Of a stretch of DNA of 64,000 nt, positions 1-30,900 are shown piece by piece. Below the pieces are notes generated by a model. The model did no database searches and was not told the DNA's origin. It saw nothing but the letters and a program-made list of their open reading frames with translations. The translations under genes were made by a program, and so were the position numbers. Every line of letters starts with the position of its first letter. The stretch's first letter is position 1. The stretch is from IMG/VR virus record IMGVR_UViG_3300028384_000675, positions 28,947 through 92,946 of that record; one strand, written 5' to 3'. The DNA comes from a virus.

Positions 1-685
1 GAACAGTACCCTTCGAACCAGTGAGAACGCCATCTTCATCGACAACTACAACGTGCGCTTCATCATATGCATCTGCACCGTCTTGCGACAGAGCAGCAAC
101 GTAAGATGAAGTTGTTGGAGCAGCGTCGAATGCGCCGGAATATGCCCAGTTTTCGAATGCTGAATCAGCAGCGATCGCTGGAACGTAACCAGGAGCACCT
201 GCTGAATCGCCAACTTGATCTACAGCAGCAGTTGCTGGACAAATAGAAACTGCGAGAGAGTTACCGACTGAACCAGGATACTTTGCAATGATCTGGTTAT
301 CGCTGAAGTCACCGCCATCAAACGCATCGCGATTCTTGACTTGAATGTCAATCGTTTCCGCCGCTGAGTCTTGTGTAGTTGCAAAGGTTGCTGCCGCACT
401 GTAGTCAGAATCTGCTACTGCGCGAGTTACAAAGGTGTTTGTAGAATATTTGAGGAAGTATGCCGCAGACAAAAAGTCCGTGGAAGACGCTCCTCCTGAG
501 AGAGAGGGTGCACCAAAATTCGCTGCCAATTCCGCTTCGTTACCGACAAGGATTGGTTGCTCCGCTGGTCCCCAATTAAAATCTCCGACTAACGCGCCAG
601 TTGATGATGTAACTGCCGGAACAACGCCCGACAGATCAATCTCTTTGACGACGATATTAGGAGACTCAGACAATTTGAGTGCCAT
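1..685 (-). CDS. gp18: Tail sheath protein (T4 gp18-like), 5' part; runs off the window edge
   Basis: Not in the ORF track. Manual translation from ATG at 685 gives MALKLSESPNIVVKEIDLSGVVPAVTSSTGALVGDFNWGPAEQPILVGNEAELAANFGAP...FLSAAYFLKYSTNTFVTRA...AKYPGSVGNSLAVSIC...EAHVVVVDEDGVLTGSKGTV, the classic gp18 N-terminus. It directly follows terL. Confidence 0.95.
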   Translation of the reverse strand, partial: MALKLSESPNIVVKEIDLSGVVPAVTSSTGALVGDFNWGPAEQPILVGNEAELAANFGAPSLSGGASSTDFLSAAYFLKYSTNTFVTRAVADSDYSAAATFATTQDSAAETIDIQVKNRDAFDGGDFSDNQIIAKYPGSVGNSLAVSICPATAAVDQVGDSAGAPGYVPAIAADSAFENWAYSGAFDAAPTTSSYVAALSQDGADAYDEAHVVVVDEDGVLTGSKGTV

Positions 686-774: not shown

Positions 775-1881
775 TTAGAGATCATATGGGTCGAACAGTT
801 GCCACGGTTCGTATTTCATCCTTTCTTGTTCTTCGATTTGCTGAATTGCGTCGCTACCGTCGTCAATAAAACCGAACGGAACGATGTCGTCTTCGATCTG
901 TCTCATCTGTTGTTCGAACATCATCTGCTTTAGGTTGATGTCTGTCATATCAGCGAACATCTGAGTTGTAATGAAGTACCCTAGCATCACGAGGTTCATC
1001 ATGAGGTCGTCGTGGTTTCCTTCGCTTGCTTCGTATGACACTCCTTTCGATACAAAGGTAGACACTTCCATGATCGTATCTTCGTCAACAATCTCAAGCT
1101 TTTTCTCTTCTAGCAAATCTTTAATACCCGAGCAACCGAGACGCTTGACCCTTCGTGTCATCTCAATACCAATAGCATTCGCTTTCACGGCAGACTCTAC
1201 GTGTACGTTCTCGTACTCCAGATCGTAGTACAGACCATTACAGACGACTGCGCCCTGATCGTTCGACTCAATTACGACGTATGCATTGTTGTATGCTTTC
1301 GCGATTTTATATATAATATCAGGGAAGAGTATTGGAGAAATAGTGTTGTTCCGATACGCAGCGACCTGACGAAACGGGCGTGTGGCAATGTCGATAACTG
1401 TAAAAGTCGAATAGTCCTGTCCTCTTCCTTTCGCTACGTCAACAGTCATGAGATATTCATGACTGGGTTGTGTTTCTTCGTATACGTTGAGGCAACCATT
1501 CTCCAATACTTTGATCGGTGGCAGTGCCCTAAGATTCAATAGAGTTTCTGCGCCGATCAAAGTATCCCCCGTTCCGAAGAACGTGTTGTGGGAAGTAAAC
1601 GATTTATCGTGATTATAAACTTTGCCGTTTTCTACATTCAGCGGGTCATAAAAATATTGCCCCTCGCAAACTTCCCTACGAACAACAACCTTTCCTATGT
1701 CATCTCCGGAGAAAATATCTTTGGCAAACTTGACTTGACTGGTAATAACAAATTTATGATTGATTGCGGTGCAAAGTTCAGTGCCGTCTTCGAATACAAA
1801 ACGAAACCCATAATCATGCCAATAACGATTTACACCATGAAATTTTTGAAATCCAGAAGGTGTTAAGATTTGTATATCGAT
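775..1881 (-). CDS. terL: Terminase large subunit C-terminal (nuclease) half, preceded by a C-intein; start codon uncertain
   Basis: The frame of ORF 775..1560 stays open up to a TAG at 1897-1899 and reads IDIQILTPSGFQKFHGVNR...CTAINHKF...FYDPLNVENGKVYNHDKSFTSHN|TFFGTGDTLIGAE.... It then contains RNase H-like terminase motifs (VDVAKGRGQDYST, IESNDQG, HDDLMMNLV). There is no ATG/GTG/TTG upstream of 1560; ATC at 1881 and ATA at 1875 follow GGAGAGG. Confidence 0.9.
   Translation of the reverse strand: MDIQILTPSGFQKFHGVNRYWHDYGFRFVFEDGTELCTAINHKFVITSQVKFAKDIFSGDDIGKVVVRREVCEGQYFYDPLNVENGKVYNHDKSFTSHNTFFGTGDTLIGAETLLNLRALPPIKVLENGCLNVYEETQPSHEYLMTVDVAKGRGQDYSTFTVIDIATRPFRQVAAYRNNTISPILFPDIIYKIAKAYNNAYVVIESNDQGAVVCNGLYYDLEYENVHVESAVKANAIGIEMTRRVKRLGCSGIKDLLEEKKLEIVDEDTIMEVSTFVSKGVSYEASEGNHDDLMMNLVMLGYFITTQMFADMTDINLKQMMFEQQMRQIEDDIVPFGFIDDGSDAIQQIEEQERMKYEPWQLFDPYDL
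1585..1881 (-). mobile_element. C-terminal fragment (IntC, ~97-99 aa) of a split intein in terL
   Basis: Block B-like TAINHKF, block F FYDPLNV and terminal SHN followed by Thr(+1). Resembles, from memory, the AceL-TerL type IntC. Confidence 0.88.
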
Positions 1882-2585
1882 GGGAGCCTCTCCGTTCTAG
1901 TTTTTCCAGACACTATATCTGCAATGCATTTCGCAGTAACATTATAATACTCGCAATATTTTCTGGCGAATGTAGAGTATGGAGTTATCGGTTTCCAACC
2001 AGAATTTTTCTTTCTTCTTTCTTCGTTAATCGGTATCAGTTCTTCTCTTATTTTATCTAGTTCTTTCGCAAAAGTATCTCTGATCTCATCAACTTGATTG
2101 TCTGTCAATTTTGGCGGTCTTAATCTTTTTCCTGATTTGGATTCTTTTTGTTTTTTAATATATTCTGGGTTTTTGTAATTTTCTTTACTTCTCTTTGACC
2201 TTATGTGAAATCCTTCTCTTTTTGCGCGTTTTTTTGCTGACTCAGACATTTTTTTTCTTTGTTCGTCAGAAAACTTATATCCCAATGTTGTGAAGTTAGG
2301 CGAGTTGTGCCCATACCCTTTACCAGAAGGAGATTCGTTCAACCCATTATTAAACGTATCAAGGGAATTAATCCAATACTCTTCTCTTCCTTCAATATAG
2401 TTTCGGTCGTTAGATTCTTCAAGTATTTGTACATCGAAATCGTCACCTTTAAAACGATTAGACCTTTTGTGATCGCCCATTCGAATCTTGAATCTACGTT
2501 GTATGGTAATCCCAACGTATTGCTTTGAGTCTGACTTCCTCTTCAAAAGATAAACCAAGTGTTTCTCTTGTTCTGATACAGTCAT
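1863..2585 (-). CDS. Free-standing GIY-YIG homing endonuclease (Seg-like) with NUMOD3 and a C-terminal HTH
   Basis: LVYLL...QYVGIT..RFKIRMGDH...GREEYWI...GLN catalytic core; GYKFSDEQRKKMSESAK (NUMOD3); KLTDNQVDEIR...NVTAKCIADIVSGKT (HTH). AT-rich and overlaps both terL halves. Confidence 0.88.
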   Translation of the reverse strand: MTVSEQEKHLVYLLKRKSDSKQYVGITIQRRFKIRMGDHKRSNRFKGDDFDVQILEESNDRNYIEGREEYWINSLDTFNNGLNESPSGKGYGHNSPNFTTLGYKFSDEQRKKMSESAKKRAKREGFHIRSKRSKENYKNPEYIKKQKESKSGKRLRPPKLTDNQVDEIRDTFAKELDKIREELIPINEERRKKNSGWKPITPYSTFARKYCEYYNVTAKCIADIVSGKTRTERLPSIYKS

Positions 2586-2658
2586 AAAAATCGCCTATTC
2601 TTATTTCGTATATAATATTATTTATAAGAACAGTTATTTGAGAACGACTTTCTAGGCA
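2494..2658 (-). mobile_element. N-terminal fragment (IntN) of the split intein: ~28-aa core plus a tail overlapping the endonuclease gene
   Basis: Cys1 codon at 2658-2656; block A-like CLESRSQITVLINNIIYEIRIGDFYD; stop at 2496-2494. Confidence 0.85.
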
Positions 2659-3447
2659 ATTACCAAATTCTTGGTCGAACTGTAATTGCGAAGTGTTTGA
2701 AATTGTTTGTCGTTTCCACTCCTCGTCTCGACCAGGAACGTCCCACCAATTTACCGTGAATGCTTTGTACTCATTAACCTTTTGTACAGCACCTTCCCAT
2801 ATTTTATGATAGGTGTTTCCGATACCATTCGCTGTAGATGTAATAATAACTTTCGTATCTTTACCAGATGAGATAACAGGATAGGTTGAAGTATAGAACT
2901 CAGCAGCACGCTCAACAAACGCAAACTCGTCCAGAAAAAGCAGGTTAACAGACATACCACGTATAGAAGAACCAGAGGTGGCAGCAGCAATAATGCGAGA
3001 ATTATTACTAAACTCAATTGAACCTTTATTAAGAGCGCGACACCCTGGCTGTAGAAAAAACGGTAAATTTTCAAGCGCCAAGGTGACTCTGGCGAGCATC
3101 TCTCGAGCGGTTGCACCTTTGTTAGCGAGGACAGCGATCGTCTTCTCAGGGTGAAATATAGCATACCATAATAGATAAACAACGGATGAAATAGACTTAC
3201 CACTTTGTCGACAGGCGAGGACGATCGAGAAACGATTATCATTAAAGTGGTCAAACATATTTTCTTGATATGGGTAAAGGTCAAAGTTGACAAGTCCTTT
3301 ATCGAGAGAAATGATTTTTACATATGTTCGTGCAAAATATGCAGGATCTTTCATACATTTAGCATACTCAACGACCTGTTCTTCAGTCCATTGTTGTTGT
3401 ACGCCATCCCGTTTTACATTAATATTACCAAGGTAACTATCATTCAT
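2494..3447 (-). CDS. terL: Terminase large subunit N-terminal (ATPase) half fused to an N-intein
   Basis: YLGNINVKR, LYPYQ adenine-binding motif, Walker A CRQSGKS and Walker B LLFLDEFAF. Ends QEFGN|CLESRSQITVL...IRIGDFYD. Likely start is the ATG at 3447, overlapping the terS stop. Confidence 0.95.
   Translation of the reverse strand: MNDSYLGNINVKRDGVQQQWTEEQVVEYAKCMKDPAYFARTYVKIISLDKGLVNFDLYPYQENMFDHFNDNRFSIVLACRQSGKSISSVVYLLWYAIFHPEKTIAVLANKGATAREMLARVTLALENLPFFLQPGCRALNKGSIEFSNNSRIIAAATSGSSIRGMSVNLLFLDEFAFVERAAEFYTSTYPVISSGKDTKVIITSTANGIGNTYHKIWEGAVQKVNEYKAFTVNWWDVPGRDEEWKRQTISNTSQLQFDQEFGNCLESRSQITVLINNIIYEIRIGDFYDCIRTRETLGLSFEEEVRLKAIRWDYHTT
2619..2626 (-). promoter_or_regulatory. Late promoter TATAAATA inside the IntN coding sequence, upstream of the endonuclease
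   Basis: Exact consensus about 34 nt before the ATG at 2585. Confidence 0.65.
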
Positions 3448-3796
3448 CCTGATCGCTAGCATCAATCACCTTCTCATCATTTTGTTGCAGTAGTCTCTGC
3501 AGGTCAGTGGTACTTCCTATGAAAACATTATTATTAGTGATTGCCTTTTGTTCTTCTTTCTTAGGATCGCTCATTATATCCATGTTCTTTTTATTTAGAT
3601 CCATCAGTTTGTCGGTCACATCAGCGATGTTCTTGATCATGCCGGATAGAACCTCGAACGCACGTGGGTGCTCGCTCTCGCGCGCGACCTCCATCATTAG
3701 GTCCATGCCACGTTTACCGTTCTCAATTAAATCAAGATATGTATCGCGAGAGGTTTCATAATCGTCTTTGATGTTTTTCTTATCTTGATCTGTCAT
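3440..3796 (-). CDS. terS: Terminase small subunit (gp16-like)
   Basis: DYETSRDTYLDLIENG...ARESEHPRAFEVL...DKLMDL...TNNNVFIGSTTDLQRLL is typical of marine T4-like gp16. Overlaps the terL start. Confidence 0.92.
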   Translation of the reverse strand: MTDQDKKNIKDDYETSRDTYLDLIENGKRGMDLMMEVARESEHPRAFEVLSGMIKNIADVTDKLMDLNKKNMDIMSDPKKEEQKAITNNNVFIGSTTDLQRLLQQNDEKVIDASDQDE

Positions 3797-6700
3797 ACTG
3801 GTTCTCCTCCTTCAAACGCTTCATATGCTTCAAGCAATACAAGCCAACTGTCGGAATTACTAGGGTTTGAAGTTTCGCGAATCTCAAACAAAATCTGCAG
3901 GTCTGCCATAAAATTGGGATCAGTAACTGTTATGGACCAAGTTCTGTTCTGATCCAGCGTTTCCCAACTGCCGAAACTTCCAGTAGCAACTCCGGAGTAA
4001 TAATTACGAGTCGCTTTGATTACATAATCTCCTGCACTCGTTGGCAGGTTAGTGGTTGGATCTAACCAAGTTCCAACTGTGTTTGTAACAAATTGATTGA
4101 ACGGGTTGGAACTCATAATATCACCATCAGGTTCGAACCTGACAGTTGTCGTTACTGACTGACTGTTTCCAGACGTAGTGATACCAAAAGGTTTGTTGGA
4201 TATCTCAACAATATCTGCTTGGGTTGTGTCATTAATATTAATTAATCGTGAAGCGAGTAGTGAACCGACATGAGAATCGTAAACACCGAACGTATAAACG
4301 TCATCTGATAGATCAGAATCTTCTGCTACGTCGACTCGAAATGTTCCTGAGTTTGAGGAGACGCTAAATGAACCTGATGCTTCATATATGTCATCAAAGT
4401 CTTCGAACACTTCAGGTTGCGCGAAGTGAAAATCGTATCCGACTGGTAATGAAGAAAGCGGAACTGCGTTACTCATAGTCACGCCAGATCCAGGAGATAT
4501 ACTCACGATAGTTCCAGGAACATCCGGAGTGTTAGACTCCATACCCAGCGCGAGGTTGGAAGTGTCTTCAAGATATATGAAGAATGTTCCTTGAGGAACG
4601 ACCTGATCTGTTCTGACCGGATATATGTTTGATGTACGATAATAATATGTGCCATCAGTAATATTTGTGCCGTCAAACGTAAAGTTAATCGTGTCACCTT
4701 CGTTGGCAGAATCATTAGCGAGGTCAGTCGATAAAGAATAAACGGATGCTTCGTCAGATAGAACAAAGGTATCTGATGCCAAAAACAATCCATTAGCACT
4801 ATCGAGTCTTAACGTCACTGTTCCTGTCAAATCTCCATGACCAATATCATCTGAGGTCGTAACGAACTGAGTAATAGTCGGTGTTGAATTTACAACAGCA
4901 GTTTTAGAAGTTATAGGGAACCTGCTTGTTATTCCAGCACTGCCAGTGATCGCAAAATGAACCGCTTCATTTTGTGCTCTATCTGCTATAGTGCTAATGG
5001 TGAACAGATTTCCCTCTGTCACATTGAACGCATCTGCAGTGTACGTCGGAATACTTGTGTCAAGGATTGTAATCGTTGGTGATTCAGCAAGCGCACCGCC
5101 TCCTGCTGTTTTAGAAACCAGAACTTTGTATGTCTCAGTACCTTCGCGGAGAAGATCTTCGTTCAGATCAGCAAAGATTGTACCATAACTTGTAGAAACG
5201 GTAAACGCTTGTTTTGCCGAAACAGGAGCGAACCCAGAAACGAAATCGTCGGAGGTTATATTGTCCCCTTGAAACCAGTAATAGTATGTTCCGTCGGAAT
5301 CGGTCGTATAGAACGAAACAGTCTGTACCACTTTCGATTCATTGATCTCTAGGTTGGCGCTGTCCAAACTTAATTGATACACGCGGTTTCCTGCGATGGT
5401 GTAGTCTAGCGTTGCGAGTTCAGTTCCGGTAGTTGTTTCTACCACTGCAGTAAATGTTTCTGGGTCGAGGTCACCGTTAGTCGCAAACTGAAGTAGCGGT
5501 GAAGGGGAACTGACGCCGCCTGACATGGTGATGGTGTCAGGAGAACCTGATTGCGGAACCGTTCCCACGAAATCTGCAGCAGAAGTTTCCCCAAAATTGA
5601 TATAAAAGTTCACATCTGAGTCAGGGATATTTGTACCGCCGATCTCATATGATACCGAATCGCCTTCGGTCGCAATCGCAAAAGAAGGCGTGATGGTATA
5701 AACAGGTGCCTGATCTAAAATATCAAAGGTATCGTTGGCAGTAAATCCTAGGTCAGAAGTAAACGAGACAGTTCCTGCCGTTGGACCTTGATATGTGAGT
5801 AGAGAAGTTGTGTTAGACAGAAAGTAAGTATCGTTGACACCCGTAACTGTAAACGAACCAGAAGAAGATAACAAGCGCGAATCTGAAGCAGCAGCGCCTG
5901 TAACGCTCCAGTTAACTGTGTCCCCGATTGTTGTCGAATCAACTGACAGTGAAGCGAGAAGCGGATTGCCTTCCACTGGATCGTCGACAGTCAGATCAAA
6001 CGTTGGAATTGTATCAGAAACAGTAATTAAAACAGAACCTTTCGCTATGCCGCCACTCGCTTCAGTTTGTAGTGAAACTGTAAAAGTTTCGTTATCGTCT
6101 ACAACATTGTCAACCATTGTTCTCAGCGAGAATGAACCGTTGCTGTTTAATATAGAAAACGGTTGCGCGGCAGTGGACATTGGCGGTGCAACTGTGAAGT
6201 CCGAGTCTGAGGTTGTACCATGCGTAACGTAATAGTACAACGTTGTGTTGCCGTTATTCGGTACGTCTGTTCCGGCAATATCAAATGTTATGATATCGCC
6301 CTCGCTTGGTGTAGCAGACGATGGTGTGATAACATATGAAGAAACAACATCGTTCAGATTAATTAATGACTGACCCTTTACACGTTCTTCGTCATCAATT
6401 ACAAATACATTGAACTGCTCAACGCCTTCTGCTTCATCAGAATCTGTTCTAGTTGGAATAGAAAACTTACCGACCGCAGTACCAGCACTGTCATTTATTT
6501 CAAAGTATGATGGCGACAATATGCTCGGCGGAGGCGATACGAAATCTGAGTCAGATGTAGAAATATGATCCACATAATAATAAAGCGCATCTGTATTATC
6601 TGGCACATCAGTTCCGCTCACTGTAAACTTAAATAATGTTCCCTCGTCTTCAGAGTCAGAGGGTGATACCCCTATAGAATATGATGAGGTAATCCTCTGA

Positions 6701-7371
6701 GAGACTGCAGAGTCGTCCATGCGCGTACTTACCAGAGACTGTACCGTATCCTCTAGTAATACTTCTCCGGCGAGGTACATACCTGCAGGGTGTACGAACA
6801 GTTTGAACAAGTCTTTCCACTGCGATATGGGAACACTAGCACGAACCAAAAGTGCAAACGTTTGATACAGTTCATCATTGGTTAAATAGCGCAGAGAGTC
6901 GGCGCCAATCCTTGAGTTGACGTCGCCGACCTTAAATATATTTTCTTTTGGATACACTACCTCGGCATCAATCCCGTAGAAAGAACGGAAGAACCATTCG
7001 ATAGCGAACCGTGTCCCCTTTGAGCGGAACATAATATTCGAGAAGTTAGCAGCAGCACGTAGTTGCGCCTCGCGCTCTTGCGGGGTTGCGTCTTGATTCG
7101 CGAACCCTTGGAAATATGAACCACCAAGTAACAACTCGTCTTCGATAAATGAAAGCAAATCTATCTCAGTTTCATTGATATCGCGCGCAGCGAATAAGTG
7201 ATTGAGCATCTCTGTTGAGGAACCGTCAGAGTCCATGAATTCATAGTAGTGTTCGAGCAACGAAATAAATTTCGGATATGATGCCGCAAAGTGTTCAGGA
7301 AGAACACCGCCTACTTTCGCAGTGCGTAGATTTATATGCCTACGTTTCTTGTCTAGAAAATGATTATGCAC
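3793..7371 (-). CDS. Baseplate wedge initiator (gp7-like N-terminal domain) with a long array of Calx-beta/Ig-like repeats
   Basis: LPEHFAASYPKFISLLEHYYEFMD...FRSKGTRFAIEWFFRSFYG...YPKENIF...WKDLFKLFVHPAGMYLAGEV, followed by ~110-aa repeats (EG..F.V.GT.VP...YYY...SDSDF...G.F....D...EG.E.F.V). Confidence 0.7.
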   Translation of the reverse strand: MHNHFLDKKRRHINLRTAKVGGVLPEHFAASYPKFISLLEHYYEFMDSDGSSTEMLNHLFAARDINETEIDLLSFIEDELLLGGSYFQGFANQDATPQEREAQLRAAANFSNIMFRSKGTRFAIEWFFRSFYGIDAEVVYPKENIFKVGDVNSRIGADSLRYLTNDELYQTFALLVRASVPISQWKDLFKLFVHPAGMYLAGEVLLEDTVQSLVSTRMDDSAVSQRITSSYSIGVSPSDSEDEGTLFKFTVSGTDVPDNTDALYYYVDHISTSDSDFVSPPPSILSPSYFEINDSAGTAVGKFSIPTRTDSDEAEGVEQFNVFVIDDEERVKGQSLINLNDVVSSYVITPSSATPSEGDIITFDIAGTDVPNNGNTTLYYYVTHGTTSDSDFTVAPPMSTAAQPFSILNSNGSFSLRTMVDNVVDDNETFTVSLQTEASGGIAKGSVLITVSDTIPTFDLTVDDPVEGNPLLASLSVDSTTIGDTVNWSVTGAAASDSRLLSSSGSFTVTGVNDTYFLSNTTSLLTYQGPTAGTVSFTSDLGFTANDTFDILDQAPVYTITPSFAIATEGDSVSYEIGGTNIPDSDVNFYINFGETSAADFVGTVPQSGSPDTITMSGGVSSPSPLLQFATNGDLDPETFTAVVETTTGTELATLDYTIAGNRVYQLSLDSANLEINESKVVQTVSFYTTDSDGTYYYWFQGDNITSDDFVSGFAPVSAKQAFTVSTSYGTIFADLNEDLLREGTETYKVLVSKTAGGGALAESPTITILDTSIPTYTADAFNVTEGNLFTISTIADRAQNEAVHFAITGSAGITSRFPITSKTAVVNSTPTITQFVTTSDDIGHGDLTGTVTLRLDSANGLFLASDTFVLSDEASVYSLSTDLANDSANEGDTINFTFDGTNITDGTYYYRTSNIYPVRTDQVVPQGTFFIYLEDTSNLALGMESNTPDVPGTIVSISPGSGVTMSNAVPLSSLPVGYDFHFAQPEVFEDFDDIYEASGSFSVSSNSGTFRVDVAEDSDLSDDVYTFGVYDSHVGSLLASRLININDTTQADIVEISNKPFGITTSGNSQSVTTTVRFEPDGDIMSSNPFNQFVTNTVGTWLDPTTNLPTSAGDYVIKATRNYYSGVATGSFGSWETLDQNRTWSITVTDPNFMADLQILFEIRETSNPSNSDSWLVLLEAYEAFEGGEPV

Positions 7372-27900: not shown

Positions 27901-30900
27901 ATACTACAGGAACGATTACTTCGTTAACGCCCTGAGTCAATGTATACGCAGGTTCAATACCGCCGAGTGACGGTGCTTGATTCACGTATGTAAAGTCAAA
28001 GTCAGATGTTGTAGAAGTCACATTACCGTTTGAGTCAGTCGCCTTAAAGGTCAACTGGAAAGTAGCATCCTGTTGTGCAGGTGTTACTGTGAAGACATTG
28101 TCAGATTGTGTTACAGTGACACCGTTGAGTTGCGAAGATAGATTATTTGCAGAAACTGAATAACCGAAATAATCTGCTCCTGCGCCATCATATGCTGTTA
28201 GTCTGGTCGGTTGAGCAGAGAGATCATTTATATCATAGACATAAACTACTCCAGTATATGTACTACCAGGACCGCCGTATGCTCCGACAATGATTTGTTC
28301 AGACGTTACCGCAAGACCAGTGCCGAACATATCAGTCGCAGCACCATCAAACGCTGTTAGTTTCGTTGGTTGAGCAGACAGATCGTTTGCGTCAAAGACA
28401 TAAACTGATCCAGATTGCGCCCCTCGGTCATCATCAGCATATGCGCTCACAACTACCTTATCAGAACTTATAGCAACGTGTTGCCCGAACATATCGCTCG
28501 TTGCCCCATCGTATGCTGTTAGTTTCGTTGGTGTCGCAGAAAGATCGTTCGCGTCATAGACATAGGCAGTGCCTGTATTGCTATTATCGCCCCTCGCTCC
28601 GATAACGACCTGACTAGAGGATGCTTCGATTGATATTCCAAACATTTGGTTTTCTGAAGCATCCGGAGATACCAACTTAGTTGGTTGAACAGAAAGGTCT
28701 GACTTATCGAAAACGTATACCGCTCCAGAATTATTTCCGTGATCGTCATCAAACGATCCGACTAATATCTTATCAGCAGTCGTAGCGAATCGATATCCGA
28801 AGTTATCACTCACAGCGCCATCATATGCTGTCAACTTAGTTGGTTGTGCATTAAGGTTATTTATGTCAAAGACATAAACTGCACCGGCATAAGTTGCCTC
28901 TTGATCATCCCAAGAATTTCCGACAATAATTTGATCTTCGGTAACTAGAACACGTTCTCCGAACCTTTTATCTCCTGCTTGATTATGCATATCATATGCT
29001 GTCAGTTTTGTTGGAGTAGCAGAAAGGTTGTTCAAATCGTACACGTAAACTGAACCAGAGTTAGGTTGCCCATCATCATCACCATATGATGTTACAGCTA
29101 ATATATTAGAATTTAAAGAAGAATGCCTGCCGAAGGAATCACCCGCAGCACCATCAAACGCAGTTAGTTTCGTTGGTTGGGCAGATAGATTATTCGCGTC
29201 AAAGACATAAACTGAACCAGAATTAGACCCGTTGTCATCGTCTCCTGCTGCTGACACAACCACATAATTCGTACCAGAGATTACTTCCTCATAACTCCAT
29301 GCGATCGCATCACCTTCTGGATCAGTTCCGACTGCAGTGATCACAGTGTCCTGACCTTGAGTCAACGTGTAAGCAGACTGGATTCCAGTCACCGATGGCG
29401 CTTGGTTGACGTAAGTAAAGTCAAAGTCAGAAGTTGCTGAAGTTGCGTTACCTTCTGAGTCAGTCGCAGTAATGCGTAACTGGAAGTCAGCATCAGCAGT
29501 TCCTGGCGTTACTGTAAACACGTTATCAGATTGTGTTACAGTGACACCGTTGAGTTGTGAAGGAGCAGAAACTGCAGCGACTGCCCAACCGAAACGATCG
29601 TCGTAAGCAGCATCAAATGCGAACAACTTAGTTGGTGCTGCTGATAGATCGTTTCTATCATAAACCCATACTGACCCATTTCTGCCATCGTCCATATTGG
29701 CGCCAATTACAATACTGTCTTCATTTATAGAGATATCTTGTCCGAAGTATTCGGATTCAGTATCGCCATCATCAGGTGCCGTGAGTTTTGTTGGAGCAGC
29801 AGAAAGATCGCTAGTATCATAGACATAAACTGCGCCTTGATAAGCATTACCATTTTCTGATTTTCTTTCTGCACCAACTACAAGAGACCCATGACGTGCA
29901 TCGACCCGCTCTCCAAAGTAACTATTTGACGTTAAATCTGACTCAGTAATAATTGTTGGCGCTGCTGATAGATCACTCAGAGCGTAAGCAAAGACTGCAC
30001 CTTTTCTACCATTATATCCCATGGCACCAACGTAAAGATTAGTGTCATCAGAAGCGAGGTAACAACCTAACTGTAAGTAATCTGTACCATCTTCGAGTTT
30101 TGTTGGTGCTGCTGATAGATCGCTCAGAGAATATACATAAACTGCTCCGTGATTATAAGAACCATGTTGTCGGCAACCAACATAAACATTATTGCTGTCT
30201 ATGTGTACAGCTCTTCCAAATTGATCAGAACTACCGCCATCAGGTGTAACCAACTTGGTAGGAGTTGCACCTAAATTAGAAGCGTCATAGACATAAACTG
30301 CACCGGCATTAGTCGTTTTTGTATCGTCGTTGATTGCAGAGACTACTACATGCGTTTCAGTTGCTGAAATTGCCCAACCCACATTGTCAGACGCAGTTGA
30401 TGGTGATAGTATTGTTGGTGCTGCTGATAGATCGCTTAAATCATAGACGTAGGCGCTACCAAAATTGTTCCCTCCGGTGTCATCGGAATAAGCACCAACG
30501 TAAAGTTTAGTGCTAGTCATAAACATACTCGCACCATAATTGCCGGAAACTGGTGATAATTTAGTTGGTCGAACAGATAAATTGTTAGCATCATAGACAT
30601 AAACTGAACCAGAGTTAGTTCCGTGAACGTCATCGAGCGGTGCACCAACAGCAATATAACTTGATCCAGACTTAACTTCTTCGAACGACCATGTAATCGC
30701 GTCACCTTCTGGATCAGTTGCCGCAGCAGTGATCACAGTATCCTGACCTTGAGTCAGCGTGTAAGCAGACTGGATTCCAGTGACGGTTGGCGCTTGGTTG
30801 ACATAGTCGAAGTTGACCGTTGCTGGTACAGTTGCCGTGTTACCGTTTGAGTCAGTCGCCTTGATGTTCAATGTAAACGAAGCATCCTGAGTTCCTGGCG

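Follow-up and report, generated by a model that had tools for sequence, protein, structure and literature searches.

We describe here a terminase gene interrupted by an intein in a 64,000-nucleotide (nt) stretch of viral DNA, positions 28,947 to 92,946 of the IMG/VR record IMGVR_UViG_3300028384_000675 (hereafter the window, to which all positions refer). The phage is an uncultured marine T4-like myovirus, and its terL gene, which encodes a gp17-type terminase, was found on the minus strand as three open reading frames (ORFs): an ATPase half, a GIY-YIG endonuclease, and a nuclease half. We consider it highly probable that terL was fractured by a split intein together with a homing endonuclease, that trans-splicing restores TerL, and that the C-half is translated from a non-canonical start codon. 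The anatomy of the locus, the homology of its parts, the exact splice junction, the selection on all of the parts, and the missing canonical start are established here.

The split terL gene and its intein

Both terL halves lie in one reading frame, which is interrupted between them by about 30 stops that include all three types, indicating that terL is truly fractured. The N-half ORF opens at a TTG (3465); the ATG at 3447, which is overlapped by the TGA stop of the preceding terS gene as read from the sequence, is the likelier start. In the original prediction, made from the sequence alone, this half was said to read QEFGN/C...IGDFYD (a slash marks the splice site) and to stop there. The reading was correct, but the ORF runs for 28 more codons and stops at 2494-2496. 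The C-half frame is open from 1896 to 775 and, as had been predicted, opens with a Hint fragment ending SHN/TFFGTGDTLI, which is about 97 amino acids (aa) long and CatC-like by sequence and fold. The C-extein that follows matched Terminase_6C (1.9e-18) and the RB49 gp17 nuclease (PDB 3c6a, E 1.3e-44).

The sequence between the exteins begins with Cys-Leu-Glu-Ser on the N side and ends with Ser-His-Asn on the C side. The junction was exact when compared with T4 gp17 (PDB 3ezk), in which N269 of the N-extein corresponds to residue 354 and Thr+1 to residue 355. Furthermore, all 80 of the 80 closest IMG/VR relatives (N-extein 77-94% identical) had an uninterrupted terL of about 535-547 aa with the sequence QEFGN/TFFGTGDT or near variants. 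The element is therefore in frame in the host protein, at a point where the exteins abut exactly in intein-free homologues, and the joined exteins form the normal gp17 linker, as originally proposed. Short contigs in the DNA sequencing run X1 matched the N-extein up to 2659 and then encoded T-F-H-G-R-G-D-T-L-V; these loose ends are an intein-free allele, which breaks at the same base as the intein boundary. The read mapping consisted of assembled contigs only and is uninformative on transcript ends or levels. Two low-depth joints in another DNA run (X12), 1428 to 2659 and 2685 to 2825 with short sides of 20 and 26 letters, most likely came from related phages and were not used as evidence; one of the two breaks at 2659.

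Subsequently, the two intein fragments, IntN and IntC, were compared with known structures. IntC matched chain B of PDB 6DSL (CatC, a consensus atypically split TerL intein) with an E value of 1.3e-11 and 34% identity. An AlphaFold (AF2) model of IntC built with 37 relatives had a pLDDT of 83.5, and its top Foldseek match was again 6DSL_B (E 9.7e-8, TMq 0.82, root-mean-square deviation 2.0 Å); the remaining matches above the E 0.001 threshold were inteins only. The model of IntC thus has the Hint fold. Cys1 was invariant in 23 N fragments, and the block-B His (H40) and the terminal H96-N97 were invariant in 37 IntC sequences. The F-block Asp and a Thr, Ser, or Cys at +1 were likewise kept across the 37 relatives. 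The catalytic set of a class-1 intein, namely Cys1, block-B His, block-G His-Asn, and Thr at +1, is consequently present, and these matches and residues bear out the Hint identity that had been proposed for both fragments.

The association of the fragments was examined with a model of the IntN-IntC complex. The ipSAE was 0.75, as opposed to 0.04 for the best of three controls, although a like complex (6DSL) has been solved and the score may simply reflect that structure. Of 80 solved complexes, 58 reached this ipSAE mark, as did 2 of 110 mismatched pairs; the runs agreed in at least 79% of contacts, and the partner pLDDT was at least 75. Because the Cat complex (6DSL) had already been solved, this result shows likeness, not proof. 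In the model, IntN residues 1-12 and 21-28 contact IntC, including its first strand, and the 28-aa tail lies outside the interface. The split is atypical, with an IntN core of 26 aa and an IntC of 97-99 aa on separate terL ORFs. Taken together, the sequence and model comparisons support a class-1 Hint intein of the TerL family that is atypically split near its N-terminus. A tblastn search of IntC against GenBank phages gave only the Campylobacter phages CP21 and IBB_35, with 32% identity, suggesting that cultured phages may carry a distant relative of the element. The IntC-like fragment in IBB_35 and CP21 (HM246721.1 and NC_019507.1, respectively) adjoins terL; that of IBB_35 is annotated beside a MobE homing endonuclease, and CP21 has no annotation there.

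The endonuclease gene is a separate same-strand ORF between the two split-intein genes, as in a fractured gene. The gene starts at an ATG within the IntN codons Y25-D26 and terminates at a TAA (1865-1863), in a frame different from those of both terL halves. It shares 92 nt with the N-half ORF and 34 nt with the open C-half frame, in agreement with the earlier claim that an out-of-frame GIY-YIG gene fills the gap and overlaps both halves. The same family occupies this position in many clades, with GIY...YIG in the first 25 residues and the end ...LPSIYKS. Selection was estimated from a comparison of the window and the L004 lineage, which have 89% identity in IntC. The ratio of non-synonymous to synonymous substitution rates (dN/dS) of the endonuclease was 0.068, indicating an intact gene under purifying selection, and that of the IntN core was 0.23. 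In the 92-nt overlap, the changes comprised 4 synonymous and 0 non-synonymous ones in the endonuclease frame, and 1 synonymous and 3 non-synonymous ones in the IntN frame. As the changes in the overlap are silent in the endonuclease frame and mostly not in the IntN frame, the tail does not appear to be selected as an intein. Together with its position in the complex model, this suggests that the tail is probably endonuclease sequence read in another frame, without a function in the intein.

Upstream of the endonuclease ATG, a T4-type late-promoter motif, TATAAATA, was found within IntN (Table 1). The window contained 13 copies of TATAAATA, all on the minus (coding) strand, in comparison with 2.3 expected, and none of 100 shuffles reached 13; the other copies are at 756-763 and at 11 more minus-strand sites. 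The distance of the IntN copy from Cys1 (32 nt) recurs in 8 related split clades and in an unbroken relative (L069); in a second group of loci (L009, L016, and L073), a copy has an offset of 53. As a candidate promoter, the copy in IntN may serve in the late transcription of both the endonuclease gene and IntC-TerL(C). Scans for sigma-70 promoters and terminators found sites no more numerous than in shuffles, and the RNA fold around the endonuclease start did not differ from shuffles (z -0.54).

Table 1 Features of the terL locus and its neighbors in the window.
Feature	Position	Strand	Remarks
Tail sheath gene	2-685	-	After terL in the T4-type order
terL C-extein (RNase H-like nuclease domain)	775-1584	-	Starts with Thr+1 (TFFGTGDTLI); stop 775-777
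IntC	1585-1881	-	97 aa from ATA 1875 or 99 aa from ATC 1881; ends ...FTSHN
Free-standing GIY-YIG homing endonuclease gene	1863-2585	-	240 aa; PF01541 4.6e-7; phrog_314 homing endonuclease 2.7e-17
Shine-Dalgarno-like GGAGAGG	1887-1893	-	5 nt before ATC (1881-1879), 11 nt before ATA (1875-1873)
terL N-half ORF	2494-3465	-	Reads ...QEFGN/CLESRSQ...IGDFYD and 28 more codons
IntN tail	2494-2580	-	28 codons and TAG stop; runs into the 5' end of the endonuclease gene
IntN core (Cys1...IGDFYD), Hint block A	2581-2658	-	26 aa; Cys1 invariant in 23 relatives
T4-type late-promoter motif TATAAATA (candidate)	2619-2626	-	Within IntN codons L-I-N-N; endonuclease ATG 33 nt downstream
terL N-extein (ATPase domain)	2659-3465	-	Ends ...QFDQEFGN; Terminase_6N 1.9e-19; T4 gp17 (3ezk) E 4.7e-52
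terS (small terminase)	3440-3796	-	phrog_445 terminase small subunit 2.5e-38; directly upstream of terL

Start of the C-half

No ATG, GTG, or TTG was found in the IntC frame between the stop at 1897-1899 and a TTG at 1560. This TTG, the first canonical start in the C-half frame, lies beyond the splice junction, which agrees with the original remark that a listing of ORFs misses IntC entirely. To place this finding, IMG/VR was scanned for the first strand of IntC (ILTPSGFQxF), and 75 loci were obtained. Nearly all of the split loci surveyed had a canonical start shortly upstream, several of them an ATG or TTG exactly two codons before the ILTPSGF strand. A canonical start was absent in the window, in L001/L002 (99%), in L003/L004 (89%), and in the ENA contig L160 from a metagenome scan. 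The start-less loci of the survey belonged to the window's clade only, apart from L022, whose 61-aa frame looks like a chance match.

The sister clades indicate how the start was lost. In them, the ATG of IntC, 13 codons upstream, arises from an overlapping Trp codon (TGG) of the endonuclease frame, whereas the window's clade has Gly (GGA) at that endonuclease codon. The ancestral IntC ATG was therefore lost with the change from Trp to Gly. The in-frame stops upstream of IntC differ by lineage, TAG in the window and TGA in L003/L004, and arose after the loss of the ATG. In L003/L004, the in-frame TGA lies 7 codons ahead of ILTPSGF, so that only ATC (1881), ATA (1875), or ATC (1869) can be the start.

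The absence of a canonical start did not coincide with a loss of selection. Between the window and L004, the dN/dS of IntC was 0.052 in the 92 codons outside the endonuclease overlap, as against 1.5 and 2.9 in the control frames; IntC must hence be translated and needed. Both exteins were also conserved between lineages with saturated synonymous sites. Several features point to the position of the start. The Shine-Dalgarno-like GGAGAGG precedes two of the candidate codons at the spacings given in Table 1, and GAGAGG is kept in the 89% lineage. The TAA of the endonuclease begins 8 nt past the first base of ATA 1875, and other clades have an ATG or TTG exactly at the position of this ATA. A similar geometry was seen in relatives with the split form but without the endonuclease gene (L026, L029, L037, and L060 of IMG/VR; L026-type), in which IntC starts with a TTG two codons before the strand, at the window's ATA position, with AAGGAG 11 nt upstream, and the upstream ORF stops at the same TAA. 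Based on the GGAGAGG spacing, the nearby TAA, and the L026-type geometry, translation most likely starts at ATA 1875 or ATC 1881 behind GGAGAGG, and initiation of IntC is probably coupled to termination of the endonuclease. In E. coli, re-initiation and the handicap of non-canonical codons have both been documented (PMC2268962).

Other routes to the C-half were considered. Stop-codon reassignment was rejected: the ATG 60 nt upstream could be used only with readthrough of TAG in the window and of TGA in the 89% lineage, so that two close lineages would need different codes, and TAG is also the stop of the N-half. A hairpin of 4 bp (GGAG/CUCC) that covers the Shine-Dalgarno-like sequence was too weak to support any conclusion. 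Ribosomes shifting by -1 towards the end of the endonuclease ORF would make a GIY-YIG-IntC-TerL(C) fusion, for which no separate start would be necessary. The endonuclease frame is one base off the IntC frame, so that a single -1 shift within the 34-nt overlap would suffice, and the in-frame fusions of an HNH endonuclease to IntC in two relatives (L049 and L078) imply that an N-terminal nuclease is tolerated on IntC. However, the overlap contains neither an X XXY YYZ slippery heptamer nor a run of A or T, no stimulatory RNA structure was found, and the TGA of L003/L004 in the IntC frame within the overlap leaves only about 28 nt for the shift. A frameshift is thus very improbable, and initiation at a non-canonical codon is the preferred explanation.

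Proposed mechanism, alternatives, and genomic context

From these results, we propose that a mobile element, an atypically split intein with a free-standing GIY-YIG gene inserted at the split, fractured terL. Two polypeptides would be made: TerL(ATPase)-IntN, with the 26-aa functional core and the 28-aa read-through tail, and IntC-TerL(nuclease), with an IntC of about 97 aa. Synthesis of the latter would begin at ATA (1875) or ATC (1881) behind GGAGAGG, assisted by ribosomes terminating at the endonuclease stop through translational coupling or re-initiation. IntN would dock on the nearly complete IntC and complete the Hint fold, and Cys1, the block-B His, the terminal His-Asn, and Thr+1 would perform protein trans-splicing. 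Splicing would yield a normal TerL of about 532-538 aa, joined as QEFGN-TFFGTGDTLI. The whole element would be spread by the endonuclease, which presumably acts by cutting the intein-free terL alleles of co-infecting relatives; intein-free alleles that are potential targets do exist (L080 and others).

Several points weigh against this proposal. Trans-splicing, the activity and target of the endonuclease, the initiating codon, and the coupling are all steps that we infer. Pfam gave no Hint or intein family at E<=1 for any of the three ORFs, although a search against such profiles was the check suggested with the original prediction, and the Hint identity came instead from the PDB sequence and fold searches. 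Block B of the window (CTAINHKF, 1764-1778) has Ala where most inteins have Thr or Ser (TxxH). The same Ala occurs in several sister clades, other clades of the family having Ser or Thr, and it is a deviation that does not define the class-1 set. In E. coli, translation is initiated very poorly at AUA and AUC, and the RNA fold at the IntC start did not differ from shuffles (z 0.52). Finally, the record is a metagenomic fragment with a CheckV completeness of about 52%, so a second terL may be present elsewhere in the genome.

The Ala in place of the block-B Thr would also suit an assembly without splicing, in which the intein halves only dock the ATPase and nuclease halves non-covalently, as in Aeh1 NrdA; fractured phage genes that work as two chains are known (PMC2677866, PMC3045599). 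We regard this as very unlikely. Cys1, the block-B His, the F-block Asp, the His-Asn, and the Thr, Ser, or Cys at +1 are all conserved across 37 relatives, IntC has a dN/dS of about 0.05, the characterized members of the family splice, and a Hint domain of about 14 kDa within the interdomain linker of gp17 would be unusual.

Trans-splicing is likewise preferred over gene decay, in which the C-half would be untranslated and terL a relic in a phage that is defective or uses another terminase. The missing canonical start, the in-frame TAG and TGA just upstream, and the incomplete contig could be read in this way. Against decay stand the selection on IntC, the conservation of the exteins between lineages saturated at synonymous sites, and the genomic context. 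The source record is a linear viral contig of 92,946 bp, and the minus-strand gene order at the left end of the window, terS, terL, and tail sheath, is as in T4, so that terL is in its normal position; it is also the single terL on the record. Near-identical sequence was present in marine metagenome sequencing runs from 12 studies, and the same arrangement recurred in independent metagenomes. Decay is consequently exceedingly unlikely. A megablast search of the locus against GenBank phages gave no match. A 1192-aa ORF directly upstream of terS (3793-7371, minus strand) had weak PHROG matches only, among them phrog_3465 'head closure Hc2' (1.4e-13, about 60 residues covered).

GIY-YIG genes often reside in T4-type group I introns, and both terL halves are in one frame, yet removal of the insert at the RNA level as a group I intron, to leave an mRNA for an unbroken mini-intein, has a practically negligible probability, since no Rfam match was obtained at E<=1 and no ribozyme core was found, the endonuclease ORF spans the whole gap and overlaps both flanks, leaving no room for such a core, and contigs X15 (7.3 kb) and X16, from two RNA-seq libraries, were colinear across the insert with no joint, although such libraries may hold DNA and contigs drop rare forms.

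A further idea concerns the persistence of the endonuclease within the proposed trans-splicing system. If IntC-TerL(C) can be translated only from AUA or AUC via termination-reinitiation after the endonuclease, the endonuclease would have made itself hard to lose by an addiction-like tie. We put this forward as a tentative suggestion that is rather unlikely to be correct. The endonuclease-less L026-type relatives fit such a tie: their deletion spared the last codons and the stop of the endonuclease, which became joined in frame to the N-half, so that an upstream ORF ending on the IntC start remains. If the tie is real, deleting or silencing the endonuclease would cost the phage its packaging motor, and the loss of a start codon, by binding an essential half-gene to translation of a selfish gene, would give a homing endonuclease a new means of persistence.

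Related forms and known systems

In the relatives retrieved from the databases, the gp17 linker has homologous inteins at either of two sites that are separated by one codon. Inteins of the Thr/Ser+1 superclade are at QEFGN/T (354/355) and those of the Cys+1 clades at QEVL/C (353/354), where the N side is one residue shorter and the C side one residue longer; window positions 2656-2661 and 1582-1587 were compared with L009, L016, L018, and others. Two relatives have an unbroken (cis) form. L069 has a 134-aa mini-intein at the same site (3593-4024, minus strand) in a 676-aa terL, and its linker, in the endonuclease frame, is a 15-codon remnant that joins the first and last codons of the endonuclease. 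L036 has a cis form of 720 aa with about 30 residues of the IntN tail kept in frame. From their sequences, both look like deletions of the endonuclease that restored one frame. A single-sequence AlphaFold model of the L069 intein had a pLDDT of 41.6 and was not used.

In the L026-type loci, the N-half ORF runs into the last codons of the endonuclease (...LPSICKS) and stops 4 nt past the first base of the IntC strand. In L015, L021, and L071, IntN continues in frame into a different GIY-YIG endonuclease, and the N-half, of about 380 aa or more, ends 5 nt short of the IntC strand. The HNH endonuclease of L049 and L078 forms an in-frame, N-terminal fusion with IntC, and the C-extein of these two loci is not terL-like (HN/CHIIKD or CEIIRD). 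The terL frame of L018, L053, and L055 is open for at least 844 aa and has three Hint inserts, ...SHN/TQT, ...SHN/CNLLYVDEA, and a cis intein at the linker site. Together, the intein-free (L080 etc.), mini-intein (L069), L026-type, and fusion forms illustrate the stages that were proposed in 2009 for the fracture and repair of genes.

The start of the C-half also affects its annotation. Public C-half proteins (P0001 and P0027-P0029) start inside IntC (GTG, MFEDGTEL...) or near its end (MNVENGK...). As gene callers place the start within IntC or near its end, the public protein sets hold truncated, non-functional C-halves, and an essential gene looks broken where the C-half is truncated or missed. 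Such a half of an essential gene, with no canonical start and with an expression that is probably tied to the preceding selfish gene, is the feature of interest here. Split inteins with a short IntN are, in addition, sought-after tools of protein engineering, and the junction residue left by a Thr+1 variant may be less reactive than that left by Cys+1.

In 2009, Dassa et al. reported 26 fractured loci, including a gp17 terminase with this unusual split point and a long IntC (PMC2677866). The 'Terminase' locus from Lake Gatun resembles that of the window: a gp17-type terminase is broken by a split intein, with a free-standing endonuclease (GIY-YIG or Vsr-like) between the halves. In contrast to that locus, the present one lies on a 93-kb contig with the full context of terS, terL, and sheath, and it can be compared with cis, endonuclease-less, and intein-free relatives. 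Overlaps of 6-69 bp between the 3' end of the endonuclease and the start of the downstream gene were noted in 15 of the loci of Dassa et al. (PMC2677866). In the model of Dassa et al., the invading element supplies the downstream initiator Met, whereas in the window's clade the ATG was lost and no canonical start is left.

Among the characterized TerL inteins, AceL-TerL (25/104 aa, Cys1/Cys+1), GOS-TerL (37/115 aa, Ser1/Cys+1), and Cat (30/104 aa) are all experimentally active (PMC11766414). The element of the window shares with them (Cat being that of 6DSL) the host gene, the linker region, a short IntN with a long IntC, and the class-1 catalytic set. It differs in its nucleophiles, which are Cys1/Thr+1 as compared with Cys1/Cys+1 in AceL and Cat and Ser1/Cys+1 in GOS, and its Thr+1 is the native conserved residue of the intein-free alleles. 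Its site, QEFGN/TFFG, is one codon downstream of that of the Cys+1 clades sampled here (QEVL/CSFLG). The Ala in block B, the IntN ORF with a 28-aa endonuclease-derived tail, and the lack of a canonical start are further differences. The locus thus adds to the atypically split TerL family a Cys1/Thr+1 member that uses the native Thr of the gp17 linker.

For the start, the closest likenesses are E. coli infC (AUU) and M13 geneV-geneVII, in which a start signal that is weak or lacking is offset by a Shine-Dalgarno sequence and/or by ribosomes terminating on an overlapping upstream ORF (PMC2268962). Unlike in these cases, the upstream ORF here would be a selfish endonuclease and the downstream one half of an essential enzyme, as judged from the sequence. 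The layout of the locus is therefore already known, and what stands out is the loss of the start codon in a C-half that is under selection.

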